A stretch of DNA of 64,000 nt from Bacillota bacterium (lineage in GTDB: Bacteria > Bacillota > UBA994 > UBA5500), in contig JAKOXL010000024.1 of assembly GCA_029781045.1 (NCBI GenBank), positions 23,210-87,209 of the forward strand, written 5' to 3'. The notes below the pieces were generated by a model, which searched no databases, was not told where the DNA came from, and worked only from the letters and a program-made list of their open reading frames with translations. This document shows, in pieces, positions 3,425 through 12,913 of the stretch (the first letter of the stretch is position 1; every line of letters starts with the position of its first letter). A program made the position numbers and the translations under genes.

Positions 3425-3640
3425 GCTCCCTTTCCTCCTTCTCGTTATTTCCGATGCAAAGATAGTCTAGTAGAACACTGCCTGAATAGCAACTCTTGCA
3501 CCATGGAGACAAAAATAACATATTATGCAGCATCGAGGGGAGCAAGAAGTGGTATGGAACACTATTTTCTTGCTGTTCATAAGATGGTTTGAAAGGGCTG
3601 CACGGTGGTGCAGAATGAGCAAAGGAGGGAAGAAGGAAGC

Positions 3641-4240
3641 ATGTGGAACAGCACCAAGCTATCAGGCGGTCTACGCGAGATAACGACCAAAGCGACCTGC
3701 GCCAAAGGCCAGAAGCGTTTCCGCCAGATACATAGTATCGTTACCGCCAATCCCGCAGAGCTTGTGCTGGGGAGCAGGATTACCAGCCATAATTACTCGG
3801 CCTGCCCTTTAGCCAACTCCGTTGAGATTAAAGGGTCCTACGATCTGCATATCTGGTACACATACGCAGACGGAACTCTAACTGCTGTGGAAAAGAAGAC
3901 GGTTCGCTATACCGAGCATCTCCCAGTAATCGATTTGGAAGGAGAGCGTCTGCGGAAGGATGAGACTGTAGAGATTACTGTGACGCGGGAGCCGGAAGTA
4001 GCAAACATGCACGTCCGTCGGGGCGCAGTCCAGGTCGAAGTGGATTTGGAGTTCTATGTCGAGATCGTCGGTGAGACTAAGCTTTGGGTAAGGGTCTATG
4101 AACCTCCCTTTGCTGATGATGACAAAAAGGCCAAAGCACTAGAGCTTGATGCTAGTGGCGACTATTTTGATGAAGACGATTTCGACGACGAGGAATACGA
4201 AGATGAATGGGAGGATGAAGACGAGGACTTCGTTCTGTAA
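3641..4240 (+). CDS. cotE: Spore coat morphogenetic protein CotE. True start is the ATG at 3641, not the ORF-track 3605
   Basis: REITTKATCAKGQKRFRQ...VEIKGSYDLHIWYTYADGTLTAVEKKTVRY...EFYVEIVGETKLWVRV followed by an acidic D/E-rich tail closely parallels B. subtilis CotE (EIITKAVVAKGRKF...[24 protein letters not shown]...). AAAGGAGGG RBS 11 nt upstream. Confidence 0.85.
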   Translation: MWNSTKLSGGLREITTKATCAKGQKRFRQIHSIVTANPAELVLGSRITSHNYSACPLANSVEIKGSYDLHIWYTYADGTLTAVEKKTVRYTEHLPVIDLEGERLRKDETVEITVTREPEVANMHVRRGAVQVEVDLEFYVEIVGETKLWVRVYEPPFADDDKKAKALELDASGDYFDEDDFDDEEYEDEWEDEDEDFVL

Positions 4241-4271
4241 TCCCTCCAGCTAGAATAGCGGTTAGTTAATG

Positions 4272-4302
4272 CTCCAGAGGTATCTCTGGAGTATTTTTTT
4301 TG
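4272..4302 (+). terminator. Rho-independent terminator after cotE
   Basis: CTCCAGAG-gtat-CTCTGGAG perfect 8-bp stem followed by a T9 run. Confidence 0.7.
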
Positions 4303-4325: not shown

Positions 4326-5738
4326 ATGCTGACTCATCATATCTTGAAGCAGAACTCCACAGAAACTGGGGGTGCAACAGCGTTGGTCAGGGTCCAACTA
4401 TTTGCGTTGCAGAATCCAGGGGAGGTACATCTCCCTGCCAGTCTTAGTAAGGATTTGCCTAGGGCTACAACTGTTGGCAGTGTTTCCTTTGGTCAAAGAC
4501 AAGCAGAAGCAGTTTTCAAATCCCCCGATAATCATCGCCGTGACAATAGATTGGGGATGGGCGCCGATATAATGCAGGCTTTAGGTCTGCGCCCAGGAAG
4601 CAGGCTGCGGGCAGCATGGGATAGTACCCGCAACCGGCTACGTTTGGGGCCAGTGGTGGCTATTATGGCTTGGCGCTGCCGTTCGTTTCCATCGTTTCAC
4701 CTTTTTGGGCCCGCTACCGACATGGTTCGTACTTTCGTGCGCTTGGTACGAGCCCGTGGCGCAGTAGGTTATGCCTTCTCCCCCAAGGAAATCCATTGGG
4801 AGAGCAATAGTGTGATCGGCTATATTCCGGCTGGGCGAGGATGGCGGAAAGCTCTGATGCCTTTGCCCGACGTTGTCTATGATCGCATTCAAAGCCGGGC
4901 CATTGATGCCAGTAAGCGGGTGCAAACTGCCAAGCAACGACTGATGGCCATGGAGAGCATCCACTATTTTAACCCCTTTTTTCTTGATAAATGGGAAACA
5001 TACGAGGCCCTAGTTCAGGACCCGCAGGCTAAACACTACTTGCCGAGGACAGAGCGACTAACCTCTCTGGACCAACTTGGTCCATGGTTACGAGCATACC
5101 CCACAGTGTTCATCAAACCTGCCAGCGGCTCCTTAGGAATGGGCATCGTTAAGATTAGCCGCATGGCTCGCGGTTACCGTTATCACCGGATTCGCATGGG
5201 TGGTGGCAGCCGTGCCGGGGTCTGTAGTTCTCTACGGAAACTACAAGCTCGACTGCGCGCCATTCTGCCGCGGCGCTCTATGATTATTCAACAGGGGTTG
5301 AACCTAGCGCGTTATGGAGGTCGTCCCTACGATATCCGAGTAATGGTGCAAAAAACGCCGCGGGGTAACTGGGTGTGCACCAACATGATTGCTAGGGTGG
5401 CATCTCCCGGAAGTGCGGTTTCCAACGTGGCTGAGGGAGGCACTATGATTTCGGTACGACGGGCGATAAAAGGGTCCCTAAGGATTAACCCGCGGGTTGC
5501 AACACGACGGATAAGGCGCGGAGCCCGGATAATTGCCCGTGCGGTGGAAACCCAGTTAGGTCAGGAGTTTGGTGAGTTTGGAGTTGATATGGCTCTAGAT
5601 CGGAGAGGAAGGTTATGGTTAATCGAAGTCAATGCCAAACCCGGTCGCCAAAACGACAATCTACCAGGTATTCCTCCTTCCATGCGCCGGATCGCCCGCT
5701 ACGCGGTGGCGCGGGCCAGGTTTAGCGAAAGGGGGTGA
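4326..5738 (+). CDS. YheC/YheD-family ATP-grasp protein, long YheD-like form with an N-terminal extension
   Basis: C-terminal half reads RPYDIRVMVQKTPRGNWVCTNMIARVASPGSAVSNVAEGGT...LWLIEVNAKPGRQ, matching the YheC/D ATP-grasp core (FD[IV]R..QKNG.G.W...IT..NGG...E.N.KPG). The N-terminal ~110 aa (LPASL...LGPVVAIM) is shared with the 8373 paralog. Start moved to the ATG at 4326 because the ORF-track start lies inside the cotE terminator. Confidence 0.7.
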   Translation: MLTHHILKQNSTETGGATALVRVQLFALQNPGEVHLPASLSKDLPRATTVGSVSFGQRQAEAVFKSPDNHRRDNRLGMGADIMQALGLRPGSRLRAAWDSTRNRLRLGPVVAIMAWRCRSFPSFHLFGPATDMVRTFVRLVRARGAVGYAFSPKEIHWESNSVIGYIPAGRGWRKALMPLPDVVYDRIQSRAIDASKRVQTAKQRLMAMESIHYFNPFFLDKWETYEALVQDPQAKHYLPRTERLTSLDQLGPWLRAYPTVFIKPASGSLGMGIVKISRMARGYRYHRIRMGGGSRAGVCSSLRKLQARLRAILPRRSMIIQQGLNLARYGGRPYDIRVMVQKTPRGNWVCTNMIARVASPGSAVSNVAEGGTMISVRRAIKGSLRINPRVATRRIRRGARIIARAVETQLGQEFGEFGVDMALDRRGRLWLIEVNAKPGRQNDNLPGIPPSMRRIARYAVARARFSERG

Positions 5739-7144
5739 GTCGGTTGGCACAGGGTCTAGTCATAATGCCTAATGAGGTAGCAAGTGGCCTGCTATCTGAG
5801 TTATTGCCGGACGTAACAGTTAGCACCACCTATCAGCCTGGAAACTGGAGGTTCATTATACGGTTTGGTGAAGCAAAAGGTAGCGATGATAGTTCCTTTG
5901 TCCTCAATAGAGCAGCAGTGCTGGATACTCCCGACCTGCTCAGTGAATCCCAGGCCCATTGGCGAGCCAGTTCCTTGCGTTTCTTAGCTCCGGGGAGACG
6001 TATAACCTTCTATAAACGCTATCGGGTGCACGTGTTTGATCTGGAGCCCATCTATATGCAGAGGATAGAGATTGGTCGGCGCCGTACCATTGCGATAAAA
6101 CCCAACAGTTCCCAAGAAGCACGGAGGGTAGGAGAGCTGGCAGTGCGGGCCTTCTACACCGCGGGTCTAGACGTGGGGGCAGTAGATATTGGCATCAGCA
6201 GTAGAGGTAGACTGTATCTTATCAATATCTCAGCCTGCCCTCGCATGGGGAGGGCAATCGCCTTAGCCTACGCCAAGCATATACAGGCGTGGATAAAACG
6301 TATGGAGGTCTATTGGACCAGGAGTCTTCTATCGGGACCAAAATGCCCCCAGTATCTGATCGGCGCTGATCCAGAATTTGCACTGCGCGACGCCCGCACG
6401 GGGCGTATGATTTTTGCTTCCGACTATTTCCCTATACAGGGTCTGGTTGGTTGCGATGCGCGCCGTGTTAAACTCGGGCGCTCCGGATACCCGCTAGCTG
6501 AGATTCGCCCTACTCCTACTCAATGTCCCCTAGAACTCTATGAGGGGATCATCCGAGCCTTACGTAGAGCCAACCGTCTGATGCCGAGCCGCTATGTGCA
6601 GTGGCGAGCCGGAACTCTACCTTTTAGTCAGTTGCCAGTTGGTGGGCATATCCACTTCAGTATGTTACCCACAGGTCCCTTGCTCCGGGCCCTAGATAAT
6701 TATCTGGCCGTTATATTCCTGCTGCTCGAGAACCCAGCTGCCGCCCGCAGCCGCCGGAAAAAGTATGGTTGGCTTGGGGATTACCGTTTGAAAACCCATG
6801 GTGGCTTTGAGTATCGAGTGGTCCCCAGTTGGTTGGTAAGCCCAGTCTTTGCTCGAGGCGCCCTTTGTTTGGCTAAGGTAATAGGTTGTGACTGGCCTTA
6901 TTTACGTTTTGATTTATTCATCCGACCGGAGGCCAAAATGGCCTTCCGACAAGCGGATCAAGACTATTTTCGTGCTCAGCTACCAACCCTCTTGGCGGCC
7001 ATCCGCTCGCTACCCACTTATGAAACCTATGCCACAGAGATAGAAGCACTTCTGAGTTTTATTGAGCAGAACAAGCGCTGGAAAACATCCGATGATATTC
7101 GGCGTAGTTGGCGCCTGGTTAAAAACCGCAGGCGTCGTGCTTGA
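5735..7144 (+). CDS. Fusion protein: a truncated ATP-grasp-like N-terminal module joined to a C-terminal glutamine-synthetase-like (GCS2/amidoligase-type) domain
   Basis: N-terminal part RYRVHVFDLEP...AIKPNSS...AGLDVGAVDIGISSRGRLYLINISACP resembles the C-terminal subdomain of the neighbouring ATP-grasp proteins. The C-terminal part carries GADPEF...(~70 aa)...VGGHIHFS...GGFEYRV, reminiscent of the G-x-E-x-E ... G-x-H-x-H pattern of YbdK/GCS2-type carboxylate-amine ligases. GTGA start/stop overlap with the upstream gene. Confidence 0.55.
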   Translation: MSRLAQGLVIMPNEVASGLLSELLPDVTVSTTYQPGNWRFIIRFGEAKGSDDSSFVLNRAAVLDTPDLLSESQAHWRASSLRFLAPGRRITFYKRYRVHVFDLEPIYMQRIEIGRRRTIAIKPNSSQEARRVGELAVRAFYTAGLDVGAVDIGISSRGRLYLINISACPRMGRAIALAYAKHIQAWIKRMEVYWTRSLLSGPKCPQYLIGADPEFALRDARTGRMIFASDYFPIQGLVGCDARRVKLGRSGYPLAEIRPTPTQCPLELYEGIIRALRRANRLMPSRYVQWRAGTLPFSQLPVGGHIHFSMLPTGPLLRALDNYLAVIFLLLENPAAARSRRKKYGWLGDYRLKTHGGFEYRVVPSWLVSPVFARGALCLAKVIGCDWPYLRFDLFIRPEAKMAFRQADQDYFRAQLPTLLAAIRSLPTYETYATEIEALLSFIEQNKRWKTSDDIRRSWRLVKNRRRRA

Positions 7145-7261
7145 GCACAGGCTATTTATGAAAGCCATATATTGTACTACAGCAGGCTACTAGCCTAGGC
7201 CAACGAGAGGCTCTGCAATATTTGTTGACAATCCCTTGAAAGAGAAAGAGATGAATAAGGG

Positions 7262-8365
7262 GTGGATAATGTGGCATCAAGCCGCGTATTGGTGGGAGTA
7301 ATGACTGCCCGCAGGCCGGGCGCGCGCCCTTTTGTGGAGGGTAGGTTCCTACGTGAACTGTCGTATGCGGCACGTCAAGTCGGAATGCGGTTGATTGTGT
7401 TTAGTCCTCTAGATATTAACTGGGGACAACGTCGAGTCCTTGGTTTCACCTATCGTAGGGGGGTTGGTTGGCAAGGCCGTTACTATCCGGTGCCTCGGAT
7501 AGTATATGATCGCATATTCCCTAGCCGAGGAATGTGGGGACTGTACTTTGGGCAGGTAGCCCGAATGCGTCGTGCTTTCCGCGTTACCATGATGGGGCGT
7601 GGCTTGCACGGCAAGTGGCAAATGTATAGGATTGTACGTCGTTACGAAGACCTACGCCCCCACCTGCCCGAGACCAGATTGGGGAGTGTTCGAAACCTAG
7701 CAATAATGCTGAACCGCTTCGACCTGGTCTATGTTAAACCCGTCTTTGGCAGTGGAGGCAAGGGAATAGCCCGCATTCGACGCTGGCGTGGTGGCTATAT
7801 AGTGGACCGTGTTGGCCGTCCACGTCTCCACGCCAGCTCTCTGGCGTCTGTGGTTGCGGCTCTTGGTGGGATGAGTCGTCGTTATGTGGTTCAGCAAGGC
7901 CTAAGGCTCAACTACTTACGAGGAAGTACTTTTGATATCAGGGCCATAGTTCAGAAGAACGGGGAAGGTCAGTGGCAGGTTTCCGGCAAGGCAGTACGGA
8001 TGAGCCGCCCGGGACGGATTACATCCAATTTGCACACCGGGGGGCGAGCCTATTCTGTGCCTGCCCTTCTACAACGCTGCTTTCCCGACAGGGCAGAGGA
8101 ACTGGAGCAAGAACTGGATAAACTTGCCATTCGTGTAGCGGAAGTCATGAATAGGCATGCTGGTCCTCTTTGCGATCTCGGCCTAGACCTAGGCATAGAT
8201 GCAAATGGCAAGATATGGATAATAGAAGTCAACTCAAAGCCTGGTCGAAAGGTCTTTCTGCAAATGGGTGACCGGGAGGGGCGTCAACGGGTGGTACGTA
8301 CATTGATGGAGTATGCCAAGTACCTGAGTGAGCAACGCAATGAGCAACGGAGCCGGGGGAGGTGA
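7262..8365 (+). CDS. YheC/YheD-family ATP-grasp protein, short YheC-like form. Start may be the GTG at 7271
   Basis: TFDIRAIVQKNGEGQWQVSGKAVRMSRPGRITSNLHTGGRA...IWIIEVNSKPGRK. 367 aa, no N-terminal extension. Confidence 0.75.
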   Translation: MDNVASSRVLVGVMTARRPGARPFVEGRFLRELSYAARQVGMRLIVFSPLDINWGQRRVLGFTYRRGVGWQGRYYPVPRIVYDRIFPSRGMWGLYFGQVARMRRAFRVTMMGRGLHGKWQMYRIVRRYEDLRPHLPETRLGSVRNLAIMLNRFDLVYVKPVFGSGGKGIARIRRWRGGYIVDRVGRPRLHASSLASVVAALGGMSRRYVVQQGLRLNYLRGSTFDIRAIVQKNGEGQWQVSGKAVRMSRPGRITSNLHTGGRAYSVPALLQRCFPDRAEELEQELDKLAIRVAEVMNRHAGPLCDLGLDLGIDANGKIWIIEVNSKPGRKVFLQMGDREGRQRVVRTLMEYAKYLSEQRNEQRSRGR

Positions 8366-8372
8366 ACAGTTG

Positions 8373-9704
8373 ATGGGCGAGACAAATCTGGCTAGGGTTG
8401 TCAGTCGTAGAGCATCATCTACCTGTACCTTACCCCGCAGCCTCCTAGAAAGAACCGGATGGCGGACAGGGGAGATCGTCACTTTTTCCTTCGGCAGTGC
8501 TAGTCGTCGCATGCGGGTACAGGGTGGTGAGGAGGATGTTTGGCAGCTGCCAGCGTCCCTTTTGCGGTCCTTGGGGATGGTGCCTCGGCGGTGGTCTTAC
8601 CACCTGGATACAGAAAGAAGATGGGTAAGGTTCGGTCCCCTCATCGGTATTTTGACCACATGGCAGACTACTCCCTATTTCCGCTCAGTAATGCGGGCTG
8701 CCGCCAGTCGTGGGATGATGGCGGTGGTTTTCCGTCCCCAAAACCTGCATCCGGGAGGACGTCAACTGGAGGGATGGGGCCTAGTAAACGGGATAGTCAG
8801 GCCGGTAAGAGTGCCTTGGCCCGATGTTGTATACAACCGCATTCCTAATCGAGGAGACGAGCTTCTACGGAGCACCAGAGTATGTAAACGCAGGTTAGAA
8901 CAGGCGAGAGTACCCGTATTCAACCGACGGTTCTTTCATAAATGGCGCATTCATCGTCTTTTAAGGCGAGATGAAACAGCCTTACGCTATTTACCGGAGA
9001 CGCAGCCGATGCTTAACTTGCAACAAGTTAGGCATTTCCTTAACCGCTATCCCGCGGCTTACCTGAAACCCAATGGCGGTAGTAAAGGGCACGGCATTGT
9101 GCGGGTTTTGCGGCTCCGAGGCCAGGGCTACCAGATTTCTTTCCGGAAGGGAAACCGCAATTATCAACACACTGTGGGAAGTTGGCCGCAGGCGGCGTCA
9201 ATAATCAGACGGGCTATGGCGCCTCGCAGTTATTTGATACAAGAAGGAATCGCCTTAGCCAATTATCGAGGTCGTCCCTTCGATGTAAGAGTAACGTTAT
9301 ACAAGAACGGTCAAGGGGAATGGGTGCCTTGTGGTCCAGCTGCCAAGATCGCTGGTTATGGAAGTATAACGACCCACGTGGCTAACGGAGGTCGTGTGAT
9401 TCCGCTTTCTCGCGCTCTGCGCTATGCTTTTGGCAATCAGGCGGAGGAGATTAGGACGCGAATTGAAGCAGCAGCAGTGGATCTAGCCCTAGCTGTAGAA
9501 CGCGTGACATCTCTCCAACTGGGTGAGATTGGCCTTGATATCGGGTTAACCGCGCAGGGACGTGTGGCCATGTTTGAAGCCAATAGTAAGCCCGGGCGGG
9601 CAGTCTTCGCAGCGGCTTGGAATCGGCAGGATCGTTGGAAGTCGTTATTACATCTCTGCGACTATGCGGCCAGTTTGGCTGGTTTTGATAGGGGTGTGAG
9701 TTGA
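8373..9704 (+). CDS. YheC/YheD-family ATP-grasp protein, long YheD-like form. Start re-set to the ATG at 8373 after GGGGGAGGTGA
   Basis: RPFDVRVTLYKNGQGEWVPCGPAAKIAGYGSITTHVANGGRV...AMFEANSKPGR. N-terminal LPRSLLERTGW...LPASLLRSLG...GPLIGIL matches the extension on the 4326 protein. Confidence 0.7.
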   Translation: MGETNLARVVSRRASSTCTLPRSLLERTGWRTGEIVTFSFGSASRRMRVQGGEEDVWQLPASLLRSLGMVPRRWSYHLDTERRWVRFGPLIGILTTWQTTPYFRSVMRAAASRGMMAVVFRPQNLHPGGRQLEGWGLVNGIVRPVRVPWPDVVYNRIPNRGDELLRSTRVCKRRLEQARVPVFNRRFFHKWRIHRLLRRDETALRYLPETQPMLNLQQVRHFLNRYPAAYLKPNGGSKGHGIVRVLRLRGQGYQISFRKGNRNYQHTVGSWPQAASIIRRAMAPRSYLIQEGIALANYRGRPFDVRVTLYKNGQGEWVPCGPAAKIAGYGSITTHVANGGRVIPLSRALRYAFGNQAEEIRTRIEAAAVDLALAVERVTSLQLGEIGLDIGLTAQGRVAMFEANSKPGRAVFAAAWNRQDRWKSLLHLCDYAASLAGFDRGVS

Positions 9705-10777
9705 TGCAGAGACCGATTCTCGGAATTCTAACGGCAGGAAAGGGATCAGTTCCGGGGAACCGCGAAATGTTCCGCTTTGTGCAGCAGGCCTGTCGGGAGG
9801 CAGGTCTGACTGCCTACGTTTTTACACCGGCCCAAGTGAACTGGTCACAGCGGATTGTATATGGCTATCGGTATGTCGGTGGTCGCTGGCGACCTGGCCG
9901 ATTTCCGCTTCCGCAGGTAGTCTACAACCGGGTGCCAAATCGGCAATTGGAAGAGAGTGCTGAAGTAAGACAACTGAAACGGCGGCTGCAGGCTAGGGGC
10001 ATTCCCTATTACAATGCCACATACTTGAACAAATACGATCTTTATCGACTGTTGGTAACTGAATCTGCTATTAAGCCTCACTTGCCGTGGACGAAGTTGG
10101 TGCGGAGTCGAGCCGACATTTACGATGCTTTGCAGCGATTTGGCCGTATCTACCTGAAGCCGAGGCACGCTTTTGCCGGCAAAGGTATCATGATGGTCAG
10201 CCTCAAGGGCAATGCTTGGGCCTTGCGTTACCGCCAAAATAATAGCAATAGGGTGATACAAGGCAGCAAACTATCCGAGCTCTGGCCGCGATTGGATCAG
10301 CGCATGGGGCGCCAAAGTTATATCGTGCAGCAAGCTATTTCCCTAGCCCAGTATCGCGGCCGCAACTTTGATGTTAGGTTACTGGCGCAGAAAAATGGTC
10401 AAGGCAGGTGGCAGGTCACCGGCATGGGGATGAGGGTGGCTAGTAAAGGTGGGATCACCACCCACGTGCCCAACGGAGGATTTATCGCCCCCGCCGAAGA
10501 GGTACTGGCCGATGTATTTGGTGCCGAAGCGCCGCAAGTACGCCAGAAGGTGGAGCAGCTGGCACTACAGATTGCACCCATCATTGAAAGGGGCTATAGA
10601 GGCCTTTTTGGCGAGATGTCAATGGATATTGGCCTAGATACAACCGGTCATCCATGGTTCTTTGAGGCCAATGCTAAACCCATGCGCTTTGACGAACAGG
10701 GCATTAGGCGCAAGGGTTTACAAACACTGACAGCTTATGTGCAGTACCTTGCTAAAAGGGCTGGCACCGGGGGGTAA
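9701..10777 (+). CDS. YheC/YheD-family ATP-grasp protein, short YheC-like form
   Basis: RNFDVRLLAQKNGQGRWQVTGMGMRVASKGGITTHVPNGGFI...WFFEANAKPMR. ATGA start/stop overlap with the upstream gene. Confidence 0.75.
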   Translation: MMQRPILGILTAGKGSVPGNREMFRFVQQACREAGLTAYVFTPAQVNWSQRIVYGYRYVGGRWRPGRFPLPQVVYNRVPNRQLEESAEVRQLKRRLQARGIPYYNATYLNKYDLYRLLVTESAIKPHLPWTKLVRSRADIYDALQRFGRIYLKPRHAFAGKGIMMVSLKGNAWALRYRQNNSNRVIQGSKLSELWPRLDQRMGRQSYIVQQAISLAQYRGRNFDVRLLAQKNGQGRWQVTGMGMRVASKGGITTHVPNGGFIAPAEEVLADVFGAEAPQVRQKVEQLALQIAPIIERGYRGLFGEMSMDIGLDTTGHPWFFEANAKPMRFDEQGIRRKGLQTLTAYVQYLAKRAGTGG

Positions 10778-10781
10778 ACCG

Positions 10782-11234
10782 ATGATAACTTACCGCCAAA
10801 TAACGGAAAAGGACTTCTCTGAACACAGGGCCAACATATTACGCCTCGTCAGGCTTCATGCCGATAATCACATTACTCGTAAGGCTCTCAACCACCTTCG
10901 CCGTTTCCGTTCAGAAAAGCTTTCTAGAGAAGGCAATGTTATCTGGACCGCTTGGGATGGTCAACTTCTTGTGGGCGTGATCTTCTGCGAACGTTTTGGT
11001 AACCGCACATCCCTGGCGGTAGTGCGGAGAAGCCACCGCTCTCAGGGCATAGCTAAAGAGCTATTGCGCTTAGCAGTAAACACTATGGGTAGATTCTATG
11101 CGGAAGTGGCCGCCGATAATCCCGCCAGTCTAAAGGTTTTGTTCGGTATGGGCATGGTCGCCTATGATGTTTTCCCTCGTAGAGGCAAATGGATACTCCG
11201 AGTACGCAATGGTTTCAAAGTTGACAAAGAATAG
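10782..11234 (+). CDS. Small GNAT-family N-acetyltransferase-like protein. Start at the ATG at 10782
   Basis: ~150 aa with an acetyl-CoA-binding-like segment VVRRSHRSQGIAKELLRLAV (R-x-x-G-x-A pattern). Begins 5 nt after the preceding ATP-grasp gene. Confidence 0.5.
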   Translation: MITYRQITEKDFSEHRANILRLVRLHADNHITRKALNHLRRFRSEKLSREGNVIWTAWDGQLLVGVIFCERFGNRTSLAVVRRSHRSQGIAKELLRLAVNTMGRFYAEVAADNPASLKVLFGMGMVAYDVFPRRGKWILRVRNGFKVDKE

Positions 11235-11350: not shown

Positions 11351-12601
11351 ATGAGCACTTGGCGTGGTAGGGACATTGCGAACGCTTTTGGCATCAGCGA
11401 TGAGGGCATGGTGCTGAACGGGGTCTTTTGCCTAAACACTCCCTTCGGGTTAGCTACTCCGTCAGTGTATCGGGGAGATCTGGACTTCTTGCAGTGGCTA
11501 GGAACTCAAGTTCCCCAAATTAACACGCGGCTGGGGCGGTTAAGCCTGAGTCGGTTACTAACAGCACCCTCGGGTCGGTTTTATGCGGAAGTGGGTGGAG
11601 AAACGGTCTTATTATCCGTATTAGAAACGGGGCCCAGTTGCGATCCTCGCAACGCCTTTGAGTTGTTCACGGTGGCTGCTGGCCTAGCCCATGTGCATCA
11701 ACAGGAGGTGGGGGTAGCGGGGGCAGCACCCGACTGGCTGAAGTATTATCAAATGCAAAGGGACAAGTTGGCACAGCTAACGCCTACCAATTTGCCGAAA
11801 CGTGCTTTGATTGCGTGGGCCAACTTGGAAGAAACGTGGCGCTTATGTGCAGAAGAGGCCATTAACCTGCTGAGCCAACTGAGAGACATGGCTCGGGAGC
11901 TTTGCCTGGTTTTAGGCTTGCAGTCCTTTTCTGATTTTGTCTATCTGGCTGATAGGCACCAAGTTCATTATAACCTGGTGGTCAGGTGCCATCTGGACTC
12001 ACCTGCAGTAGATCTAGCTCGCTTGGTGGCGTCTGCGGGGAGTGAGGGCAGAATCGCGCATAACATGCTTTTATCTTACCAGCGGGTAAGAAGGCTGACT
12101 AAAGGCGAATGCCAAGAGCTCTTTGCCCATCTGTGGTTCCCACACGAGGTTGATTTGGCCATCTTTTCTGATCCTACGGTTACTCCGTTACGCTTGCAAC
12201 GGGCTTGCCATCTATTGCAGGAGAAAATAGGCATGATCTCAGAGTTGGAAGATATTTTGCTGCCTACGGCCGAGGAGCCCAGTGGGCAGAGGGAAATAAG
12301 GGAGGTATTAACTGTGAACGAAAAGAAAGTGGAACCGGCACAGATTGATGCTGTGGAACTCCAATTGGAGCCAGTTCTCGATGAACCTCTGGCCGCGGCG
12401 GAAACGGCAGAGGAAGCCATGCCCGCCGTCCCAGCTGAGCAAGAGGCAAAGCGGGAAGAAGTGCAGATTAACATGATTGCGGCTACGACTAGGCGGGCCA
12501 GTGTGTGGGGACCTTTCCCAGCGCCTTTGAAAAAGGTAGAAACCAAAATTGAATCCAAAACTGAAGACCCACAGGAAGGAGAGAAAACGAGTCAGGAGTA
12601 A
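11351..12601 (+). CDS. CotS-family (bacterial spore kinase / pseudokinase-like) spore coat protein with an E/P/A-rich C-terminal tail
   Basis: FSDFVYLADRHQVHYNLVVRCHLDSPAVDLARLV and AHLWFPHEVDLAIF parallel B. subtilis CotS FCFQDFTLARL...HSITYDLPSRDLRILL and WIDLAFPHLFCAI. The last ~100 aa are low-complexity acidic and proline-rich. Confidence 0.5.
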   Translation: MSTWRGRDIANAFGISDEGMVLNGVFCLNTPFGLATPSVYRGDLDFLQWLGTQVPQINTRLGRLSLSRLLTAPSGRFYAEVGGETVLLSVLETGPSCDPRNAFELFTVAAGLAHVHQQEVGVAGAAPDWLKYYQMQRDKLAQLTPTNLPKRALIAWANLEETWRLCAEEAINLLSQLRDMARELCLVLGLQSFSDFVYLADRHQVHYNLVVRCHLDSPAVDLARLVASAGSEGRIAHNMLLSYQRVRRLTKGECQELFAHLWFPHEVDLAIFSDPTVTPLRLQRACHLLQEKIGMISELEDILLPTAEEPSGQREIREVLTVNEKKVEPAQIDAVELQLEPVLDEPLAAAETAEEAMPAVPAEQEAKREEVQINMIAATTRRASVWGPFPAPLKKVETKIESKTEDPQEGEKTSQE

Positions 12602-12682
12602 ACCCACTGCTTTGTAGTGATAAGAATATCGGTGGGGCATACTAACTCTGTCATTATAGCTGCACTTCTAGCAGAAAGGGTG

Positions 12683-12865
12683 ATGGTCGTGGCTCGAGGG
12701 CGAGGCATAATGTCTGACGAACTCAAGTACCGACTAGCCGACGAACTGGGTTTCGGGGATATGGTACGTCAACATGGTTGGGGTGCCATCACAACCCGAG
12801 ATGCTGGCAATCTGGTAAAGCTGGCTATTGCCAAGGCGCAACAGATGATGCAAGAGCAGCTATAA
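12683..12865 (+). CDS. Divergent alpha/beta-type small acid-soluble spore protein (SASP)-like protein; start uncertain between 12683 and 12710
   Basis: ELKYRLADELGFGDMVRQHGWGAITTRDAGNLVKLAIAKAQQ resembles SASP QMKYEIAQEFGV...GGEITKRLVQMAEQQ but matches the two PROSITE SASP signatures only partly. A CATACTA sigma-G-like -10 lies upstream. Confidence 0.45.
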   Translation: MVVARGRGIMSDELKYRLADELGFGDMVRQHGWGAITTRDAGNLVKLAIAKAQQMMQEQL

Positions 12866-12871
12866 TGGCTT

Positions 12872-12913
12872 GGGGGGCTATCCGCTTTAGCGGATAGCCC
12901 CCGCTTTTGTTTC
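12872..12913 (+). terminator. Rho-independent terminator
   Basis: GGGGGCTATCCGC-ttta-GCGGATAGCCCCC perfect 13-bp stem, then GCTTTTGTTT. Confidence 0.8.

Follow-up and report, generated by a model that had tools for sequence, protein, structure and literature searches.

A COOH-NH2 ligase fused to a lidless ATP-grasp-like domain in a cotE-linked gene cluster of a Bacillota bacterium

We analysed a 64,000-nucleotide stretch of DNA (the window hereafter; contig JAKOXL010000024.1 of assembly GCA_029781045.1, a Bacillota bacterium of the UBA5500 lineage) and concentrate here on one gene at 5744..7144 of the forward strand, which encodes a putative amidoligase of 466 residues. The protein is made of two domains. 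Residues 206-458 (6359..7117, forward strand) are a COOH-NH2 ligase type 2 domain (PF14395) with a fold like that of glutamine synthetase (GS) and the GCS2 ligases, and they are predicted, by analogy with such enzymes, to contain an active COOH-NH2 ligase centre. Residues 1-194 (5744..6325, forward strand) have an ATP-grasp fold without its lid and with degenerate catalytic positions, and are most likely a pseudoenzyme. The gene lies downstream of cotE and is surrounded by four genes for ATP-grasp ligases of the YheC/D type. We think it rather probable that, as a general picture, the two-domain enzyme acts in spore-coat maturation and the operon builds or modifies a coat peptide. All residue numbers refer to the 466-residue form of the protein.

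The C-terminal half matches PF14395 over the entire profile (positions 1-254 of 254), with 294.5 bits against a cut-off of 25 and an E-value of 7e-88, and all 41 aligned homologs match the same family; NCBIfam had no model for the COOH-NH2 ligase domain of the amidoligase. Three motifs stand out in the domain. GADPEF (residues 207-212; 6362..6379, forward strand) lies on the domain's first beta-strand (strand 206-216 in the structural model), GGHIHF (residues 300-305; 6641..6658, forward strand) on strand 301-305, and GGFEYR (residues 353-358; 6800..6817, forward strand) on strand 355-359. A preceding interpretation made from the letters of the window and a list of open reading frames (the sequence-only reading hereafter) had quoted these motifs along with RYRVHVFD (residues 92-99) and VDIGISSRGRLYLINISACP (residues 147-166) of the N-terminal half, and all of them are present. 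That reading had named conservation in orthologs as a test of its own proposal, and when the test was run the residues of GADPEF, GGHIHF and GFEYR proved invariant: across the 41 homologs, which are 31-87% identical, the invariant positions are G207, A208, D209, E211 and F212, then G300, G301, H302 and H304, then G354, F355, E356, Y357 and R358, together with E253, R255, R337 and R338. An AlphaFold2 model of the amidoligase, with a mean predicted local distance difference test (pLDDT) score of 92.8 and a predicted template-modelling (pTM) score of 0.92, has the three invariant motifs on beta-strands, and scores of this height suggest a fixed arrangement of both domains. By analogy with GS-like ligases, GADPEF would be the counterpart of the G-x-E-x-E-F metal site, GGHIHF that of the G-x-H-x-H nucleotide and metal strand, and GGFEYR that of the E-x-R strand.

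Fold comparison places this domain among the glutamine-synthetase/GCS-like catalytic folds. The closest solved fold is 1tt4 (GCS2/YbdK-like), and PafA and Dop are nearly as near as GshA. At the level of sequence, the GCS2 family proper (PF04107) was not matched, and PF14395 was the sole Pfam match at E up to 0.01. When profiles from alignments of the whole protein and of its C-terminal part were run against PDB sequences, nothing rose above chance level, RimK and Ddl appearing at E of about 1. Since there is no sequence-level match to GCS2, the amidoligase shares the superfamily and not the GCS2 family. The earlier suggestion of a GS-like amidoligase C-terminus was thus correct as to fold and superfamily, and does not reach as far as the GCS2 family itself. 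A glutamine synthetase gene was sought in the window and in the loci of relatives for a residue-by-residue alignment of the motifs, and none was found there.

By fold comparison, the N-terminal domain is an ATP-grasp, its best matches being RimK and LysX/ArgX, with Ddl-type ATP-grasps also among the matches. It keeps the Rossmann-like pre-ATP-grasp subdomain and the C-terminal subdomain. Missing are the central lid subdomain, which holds the glycine-rich loop and the ATP-binding part, and the substrate loop (RN..G). The sequence-only reading, which saw in the first 200 residues or so nothing beyond a C-terminal subdomain, was right that the module is truncated, and overlooked the pre-ATP-grasp subdomain. 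Aligned with its closest active relatives, the small stand-alone proteins that we call mini ATP-grasps, the domain has lost about 55 residues, including the glycine-rich loop. The segment N55-Y93, which takes the place of the lid of complete mini ATP-grasps, spans about 37 residues in most of 83 fused homologs, and a linker of 80 residues is found in only five of them. Two long-form homologs, P0051 and P0102, retain part of the lid and, judged by their sequences, look like intermediates of a process of fusion followed by decay. The positions that correspond to catalytic residues have drifted as well. The equivalent of the catalytic arginine is R in 28 of the 83 fused homologs, the first magnesium ligand is D in 16, and in the E-x-N motif the E position is variable and the N position is D in 42 and N in 21. 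The window protein itself reads YLINISACP where active mini ATP-grasps have the magnesium-binding motif VLEVNTAPG. Searches of Pfam and NCBIfam returned nothing significant for the N-terminal half, R2K_2 at E 0.11 being the sole match, and nothing at all for the N-terminal halves of P0051 and P0102. Because the catalytic-equivalent positions are not conserved and the lid is deleted, the N-terminal domain is most likely a pseudoenzyme.

The origin of this domain can be traced beyond the amidoligases. Its profile was searched against 1.84 billion representative proteins and matched 3723 of them with an E-value of 0.001 or better. These include fused amidoligases of about 440-550 residues, and about one third of the best 150 of the 3723 are stand-alone proteins of 228-290 residues, with E-values of 1e-17 to 1e-20. 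Seven such mini ATP-grasps were scanned; every Pfam match was to an ATP-grasp family, including RimK (PF08443, up to E 2e-10), ATP-grasp_3 and Ddl_C, and the curated cut-off was reached in six of the seven. The N-terminal domain and the mini ATP-grasps have the landmarks (I/V)(R/N)WG, VLN, EYRVHVF and LGLDFGAVDI in common, and the mini ATP-grasps (about 240 residues) retain the segment of about 55 residues with the glycine-rich loop, the RN..G loop and VLEVNTAPG. The sequence-only reading had assigned the domain to the YheC/D pattern of ATP-grasps, and this part of it did not survive. A YheC/D (PF14398) ancestry was considered and rejected: there is no Pfam match, hhalign gave a probability of 31% over 60 columns against the four YheC/D paralogs of the window and 17% when 82 N-terminal domains were compared with 183 YheC/D sequences from the loci of relatives (the alignments span 44-60 columns overall), and the matches to mini ATP-grasps are far stronger.

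Two of the mini ATP-grasps were traced to their contigs, both of which are phage-like. On one (L088, 475-5904, and L089), the module consists of a GGACT gene, a glutamine amidotransferase (GATase) gene, a stand-alone COOH-NH2_lig gene of 241 residues, two further genes and the mini ATP-grasp, and the contig also carries primase/helicase and DNA polymerase genes. On the other (L090), the mini ATP-grasp is accompanied by two COOH-NH2_lig genes and an amidotransferase gene. A Foldseek search of viral structure predictions likewise returned single-domain relatives only, namely a COOH.NH2 ligase-type 2 protein of 267 residues and ATP-grasps of about 230-290 residues. The PF14395 protein of phage UFV-P2 has 265 residues (PMC3890496), and genes for an ATP-grasp, an amidoligase, a COOH-NH2 ligase and an amidotransferase have been annotated in a phage paper (PMC6209634). 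A tblastn search of 50,697 phage genomes gave no match; BLAST does not reach phage relatives as divergent as these. From these comparisons, the most fitting view of the Bacillota amidoligase is that two enzymes that act as partners in a phage module became fused and that the ATP-grasp half then decayed.

To place the gene among its relatives, one genome per species was scanned. Relatives were found in 595 genomes, and the loci of the best 80 of these were examined, with flanks of about 10 kb screened only for relatives of the genes in the window's own cluster. All 80 are from Bacillota except one metagenome-assembled genome (MAG) labelled Deltaproteobacteria, and they cover Syntrophomonadaceae, Thermoactinomycetaceae, Tumebacillus, Symbiobacterium, Limnochordia, Thermincola, Ammoniphilus and many uncultured lineages; the nearest relative among them is from UBA5500, at 72% identity. 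A YheC/D gene is directly adjacent to the amidoligase gene in 63 of the 80 loci. In 29, cotE lies within 10 kb, and in 13 of those 29 it is adjacent. Taken together, 77 of the 80 have an adjacent YheC/D gene, a cotE within 10 kb, or both; of the remaining three, two are very short contigs and the third has its YheC/D gene 600 bp away. Five Thermoactinomycetaceae loci (L003, L045, L050, L058 and L061) carry the amidoligase gene between cotE and mutS in the conserved miaB-ylbF-cotE-mutS-mutL locus, and their flanks are free of YheC/D genes, so the link to cotE is independent of the ATP-grasp genes. The window CotE ends in a strongly acidic tail, with 23 D/E in its last 45 residues, and such tails (13-26 D/E in the last 45 residues) are found in 30 of 34 distinct CotE tails, at least one per cotE-bearing locus.

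The coupling to YheC/D ligases also takes the form of gene fusions. P0210 (977 residues) and P0193 (783 residues) are natural triple fusions of a lidless ATP-grasp-like domain, a COOH-NH2 ligase and a YheC/D ATP-grasp, and the 977-residue protein argues for a physical or functional coupling of the amidoligase and the YheC/D enzymes. P0210 has a weak MazE/AbrB-like match between its COOH-NH2 ligase and YheC/D parts, and this stretch of the triple fusions may correspond to the extensions of YheC/D ligases 1 and 3 of the window, which bear additional N-terminal stretches of about 100 residues. AbrB/SpoVT-like N-terminal extensions were considered for these two paralogs and set aside, as they have no Pfam support in the window proteins. 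Several loci deserve mention in their own right. Two amidoligase paralogs are interleaved with YheC/D genes in L014 (7035-8447 and 9908-11350; a Clostridia MAG) and in L081 (6635-8185 and 9662-11113; a Limnochordia MAG). In L052, L064, L070 and L077, from Thermincola-like and related genomes, a tandem pair of cotE genes, one of them acidic-tailed, lies upstream of four YheC/D genes and the amidoligase gene. Three Syntrophomonadaceae homologs (P0055, P0115 and P0120; L001, 10001-11632) have an extra C-terminal tail of about 80 residues that is of low complexity and rich in S, T, N and R, and their loci have no cotE within 10 kb. The Deltaproteobacteria-labelled MAG (L023, JBLMZJ010000030.1) bears a typical YheC/D-amidoligase locus of the Syntrophomonadaceae type, and its label is probably a binning or labelling error.

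A mechanism can be proposed for the two-domain enzyme. By analogy with GS-like ligases, the reaction in the C-terminal domain would depend on ATP and Mg2+ and pass through an acyl-phosphate, made from a carboxylate and then attacked by an amine to give an amide or isopeptide bond. Metal and nucleotide would be held by D209/E211, E253, H302/H304 and E356, and phosphate or carboxylate by R255, R337, R338 and R358. The non-catalytic N-terminal domain would keep the groove between its N- and C-subdomains, which in RimK and LysX holds an acidic protein tail, and its role could be to dock or present the substrate or to bind the neighbouring YheC/D ligases. The amidoligase, the four intact YheC/D ligases and an acetyltransferase-fold (GNAT) protein would jointly assemble or alter a peptide located on the spore coat or within it, and sequential ligation is plausible, if putative, at the level of the operon. 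The best candidate for the substrate is the acidic C-terminal tail of CotE, although we put it forward tentatively and think it rather unlikely to be the true one. A more elaborate version, which we regard as doubtful, is a machine that "codes" the protein tail of CotE in the manner of tubulin polyglutamylation. With its dead ATP-grasp domain as a guide, the amidoligase would begin an isopeptide branch on Glu or Asp or form a cross-link, the YheC/D enzymes would extend the branch one residue at a time, the GNAT protein would cap it, and the outcome would control assembly of the outer coat. If this were true, the initiating enzyme would be a phage-derived pair of ligases that was fused and half-inactivated into a developmental enzyme.

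A number of points weigh against a role of this kind. A literature search gave no demonstrated activity or substrate for any member of PF14395 or YheC/D, and the metal and ATP ligands are assigned from the likeness of the motifs and their position on strands. In most Syntrophomonadaceae loci, the amidoligase gene is accompanied by YheC/D genes but cotE is missing within 10 kb, so CotE cannot be a universal substrate. The synteny with cotE could also stem from shared regulation in the mother cell, with no relation of enzyme to substrate. Moreover, the N-terminal domain is well conserved, with N55 invariant and the LGLDFG motif kept, and might have some unforeseen ligand-binding or catalytic role.

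The strongest competing account is that the product is a free or coat-deposited non-ribosomal oligopeptide or poly-amino-acid, to which five ligases would add one residue each, with the amidoligase step on a small-molecule intermediate and the GNAT protein as the capping enzyme. The loci where cotE is missing within 10 kb would fit this account, as would the closest fold, 1tt4, since that enzyme group and GshA act on small molecules, and the phage module with its GATase and GGACT genes resembles small-molecule or peptide metabolism. Several distinct peptide ligases in one operon are, in addition, typical of the synthesis of peptide-derived metabolites (PMC4431377). However, the linkage to cotE is tight and recurs in distant lineages, including cotE-amidoligase pairs that have no other ligase in flanks of about 10 kb. 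The top ATP-grasp fold matches of the N-terminal domain, RimK and LysX/ArgX, are protein-tail ligases, the fold of PafA/Dop is nearly as similar as that of GshA, and the window cluster has no transporter, precursor-peptide or amino-acid-tailoring genes. We consider a free peptide possible but improbable.

Two other accounts seem to us much less probable. The cluster could modify cell-wall or cortex peptides, amidating or extending the stem peptides of peptidoglycan, and the link to cotE would then amount to co-expression in the mother cell. Phage PF14395 members have reportedly been predicted, by Iyer et al. in 2009 and in Pfam annotations, to modify cell-wall components, and the Ddl-type matches of the N-terminal fold point the same way. 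The window cluster nevertheless contains no mur, spoVD/E or cortex genes, and although a division and cell wall (dcw) cluster with mraZ/rsmH is nearby in the window, fumarase genes and a terminator-like hairpin lie in between; we find a cortex role very unlikely. Slightly less credible still is the model of the sequence-only reading, in which both halves are catalytically active and carry out two ATP-dependent ligations in sequence. Its premise of two ATP-dependent amide-forming folds in one chain stands, the N-terminal domain is under clear purifying selection, and R94 and D148 are kept in the window protein. Two activities are unlikely, however. The lid and the RN..G loop are gone, N-I-S replaces E-x-N in the window protein, the arginine and D/E-x-N positions vary across the family, and no ATP-grasp hidden Markov model is significant on the domain. 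Judged from these sequence features, one active centre joined to a pseudoenzyme domain fits better than a dual ligase.

The amidoligase with one live and one dead domain can be set beside several known systems. Iyer, Abhiman, Burroughs and Aravind are said to have defined PF14395 computationally in 2009, as "Phage phiEco32-like COOH.NH2 ligase-type 2", and reportedly described, also computationally, its GS-like nature and its partnership with ATP-grasp and GNAT enzymes. From the same work, Pfam annotations reportedly tie YheC/D and the linked COOH-NH2 ligases to modification of spore-wall or capsule proteins. The phage members of PF14395 have the same invariant D-x-E, H-x-H and E-x-R motifs and the same ATP-grasp partnership as the window protein, but they are stand-alone proteins of about 240-270 residues in phage modules, whereas the Bacillota clade sits in sporulation loci and adds the decayed N-terminal ATP-grasp domain. 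The YbdK/GCS2 and GshA enzymes (PDB 1tt4, 2gwc, 3ln7 and 1v4g) act on free amino acids and have no detectable sequence similarity to the window protein, which differs from them in an extra C-terminal helical extension and in its N-terminal ATP-grasp-like domain. The Pup ligase PafA and the depupylase Dop (PDB 4bjr and 9cku) belong to another family, with other accessory domains and in another phylum, and the window cluster has no Pup-like gene. RimK, LysX/ArgX and TTL/TTLL resemble the N-terminal domain in shape and probably not in catalysis, as the domain is without the lid and the conserved magnesium and ATP residues. The four neighbours of the amidoligase belong to the family of Bacillus subtilis YheC and YheD (PF14398), but the amidoligase itself does not. 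YheC and YheD are listed as spore-coat proteins of B. subtilis, and YheD is found at the basement layer (PMC7725329; bioRxiv 10.1101/2022.02.25.481979). The modification of fimbriae by CfmP was considered as an experimental analogue and set aside, since CfmP is a TupA-like ATP-grasp and not relevant.

The start of the gene calls for a correction. The open reading frame given by the sequence-only reading exists as described, at 5735..7144 on the forward strand, with 469 codons from GTG 5735 in a mechanical list of open reading frames. In public collections, the gene call for an identical protein (P0001), found on at least eight metagenome contigs, has 466 residues, which implies a start at TTG 5744. 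This codon lies 6 nt downstream of the stop of the upstream gene and is preceded, at a distance of 9 nt, by the Shine-Dalgarno sequence AGGGGG. The true start is likely TTG 5744 rather than GTG 5735. Consequently, the GTGA overlap with the upstream stop, which that reading pointed out and which is present in the sequence, is probably not the arrangement in use, although the amidoligase gene and its upstream neighbour are still tightly coupled.

The surrounding cluster begins with cotE (3641..4240, forward strand), encoding an outer spore coat morphogenetic protein of 199 residues (Pfam PF10628, E 2e-34). A terminator-like hairpin follows on the same strand (4268..4295; a 12-bp stem and then a run of seven T, by pattern match only). 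It overlaps the mechanical start of YheC/D ligase 1 at ATG 4269, and the database gene call for this ligase starts at ATG 4326; from this sequence arrangement, cotE may be transcribed apart from the ligase operon or under read-through control. The four further ATP-grasp genes announced by the sequence-only reading are all there, each with a full-length PF14398 domain (E 1e-69 to 5e-74) and each on the forward strand: ligase 1 of 470 residues (4326..5738, or from 4269 in the mechanical frame; E 1e-69), ligase 2 (7262..8365; E 5e-74), ligase 3 of 454 residues (8340..9704; E 2e-72) and ligase 4 of 357 residues (9704..10777; E 5e-73). The catalytic K, the glycine-rich loop, D-x-R, D and E-x-N are invariant across the four paralogs.

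Downstream, a gene of the GNAT acetyltransferase fold (10737..11234, forward strand; PF13673, PF00583) overlaps the end of ligase 4 and is kept in the closest related clusters. It is followed by a conserved cluster gene of 416 residues (11351..12601, forward strand) with no Pfam domain, an acidic, proline-rich C-terminus, and a weak match to the CotS family of kinase-like spore coat proteins (TIGR02906, E 0.002, far below the cut-off); this gene is syntenic in three related loci (L009, L011 and L012). The last open reading frame of the cluster is small (12617-12865; called as a gene at about 12683-12865) and has a weak match, below the cut-off, to small acid-soluble spore proteins of the alpha/beta type (PF00269, E 0.004). 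The cluster is closed by a strong terminator-like hairpin on the forward strand (12873..12902), with a 13-bp stem that includes 10 GC pairs and then a run of T. Upstream of cotE (window positions 3480-3580) there are sequences resembling the targets of mother-cell sigma factors, AC-N17-CATATTAT and CATAAGAT, and the 118-bp gap between the amidoligase gene and the next YheC/D gene (7145-7261) contains AC-N17-CATATATT; all are pattern matches only. The latter hints at an internal promoter in the gap, and such sigmaK/E-like patterns are the basis for a putative mother-cell expression of the cluster. A scan for sigma-70 promoters found no enrichment over shuffled sequences.

The family and its context had already been predicted computationally, current views are not overturned, and the window gene is one among several thousand proteins of the same architecture. 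What may be new, in that current databases leave it unannotated, is the lidless ATP-grasp pseudoenzyme character of the N-terminal domain, its origin from mini ATP-grasps and the quantified linkage to cotE. The N-terminal 190 residues of several thousand proteins named "putative amidoligase domain-containing" can now be labelled as lidless ATP-grasp-like, and they provide a clean pseudoenzyme case, in which two partners of a phage module were fused and the ATP-grasp half decayed. CotE is a key organiser of the outer spore coat, and we know of no covalent peptide modification of it. An operon of five ligases at cotE offers a concrete, testable hypothesis for the YheC/D enzymes, and a conserved fusion in which one ligase domain is live and the other dead suggests that the amidoligase would be the enzyme that selects the substrate or initiates the reaction.

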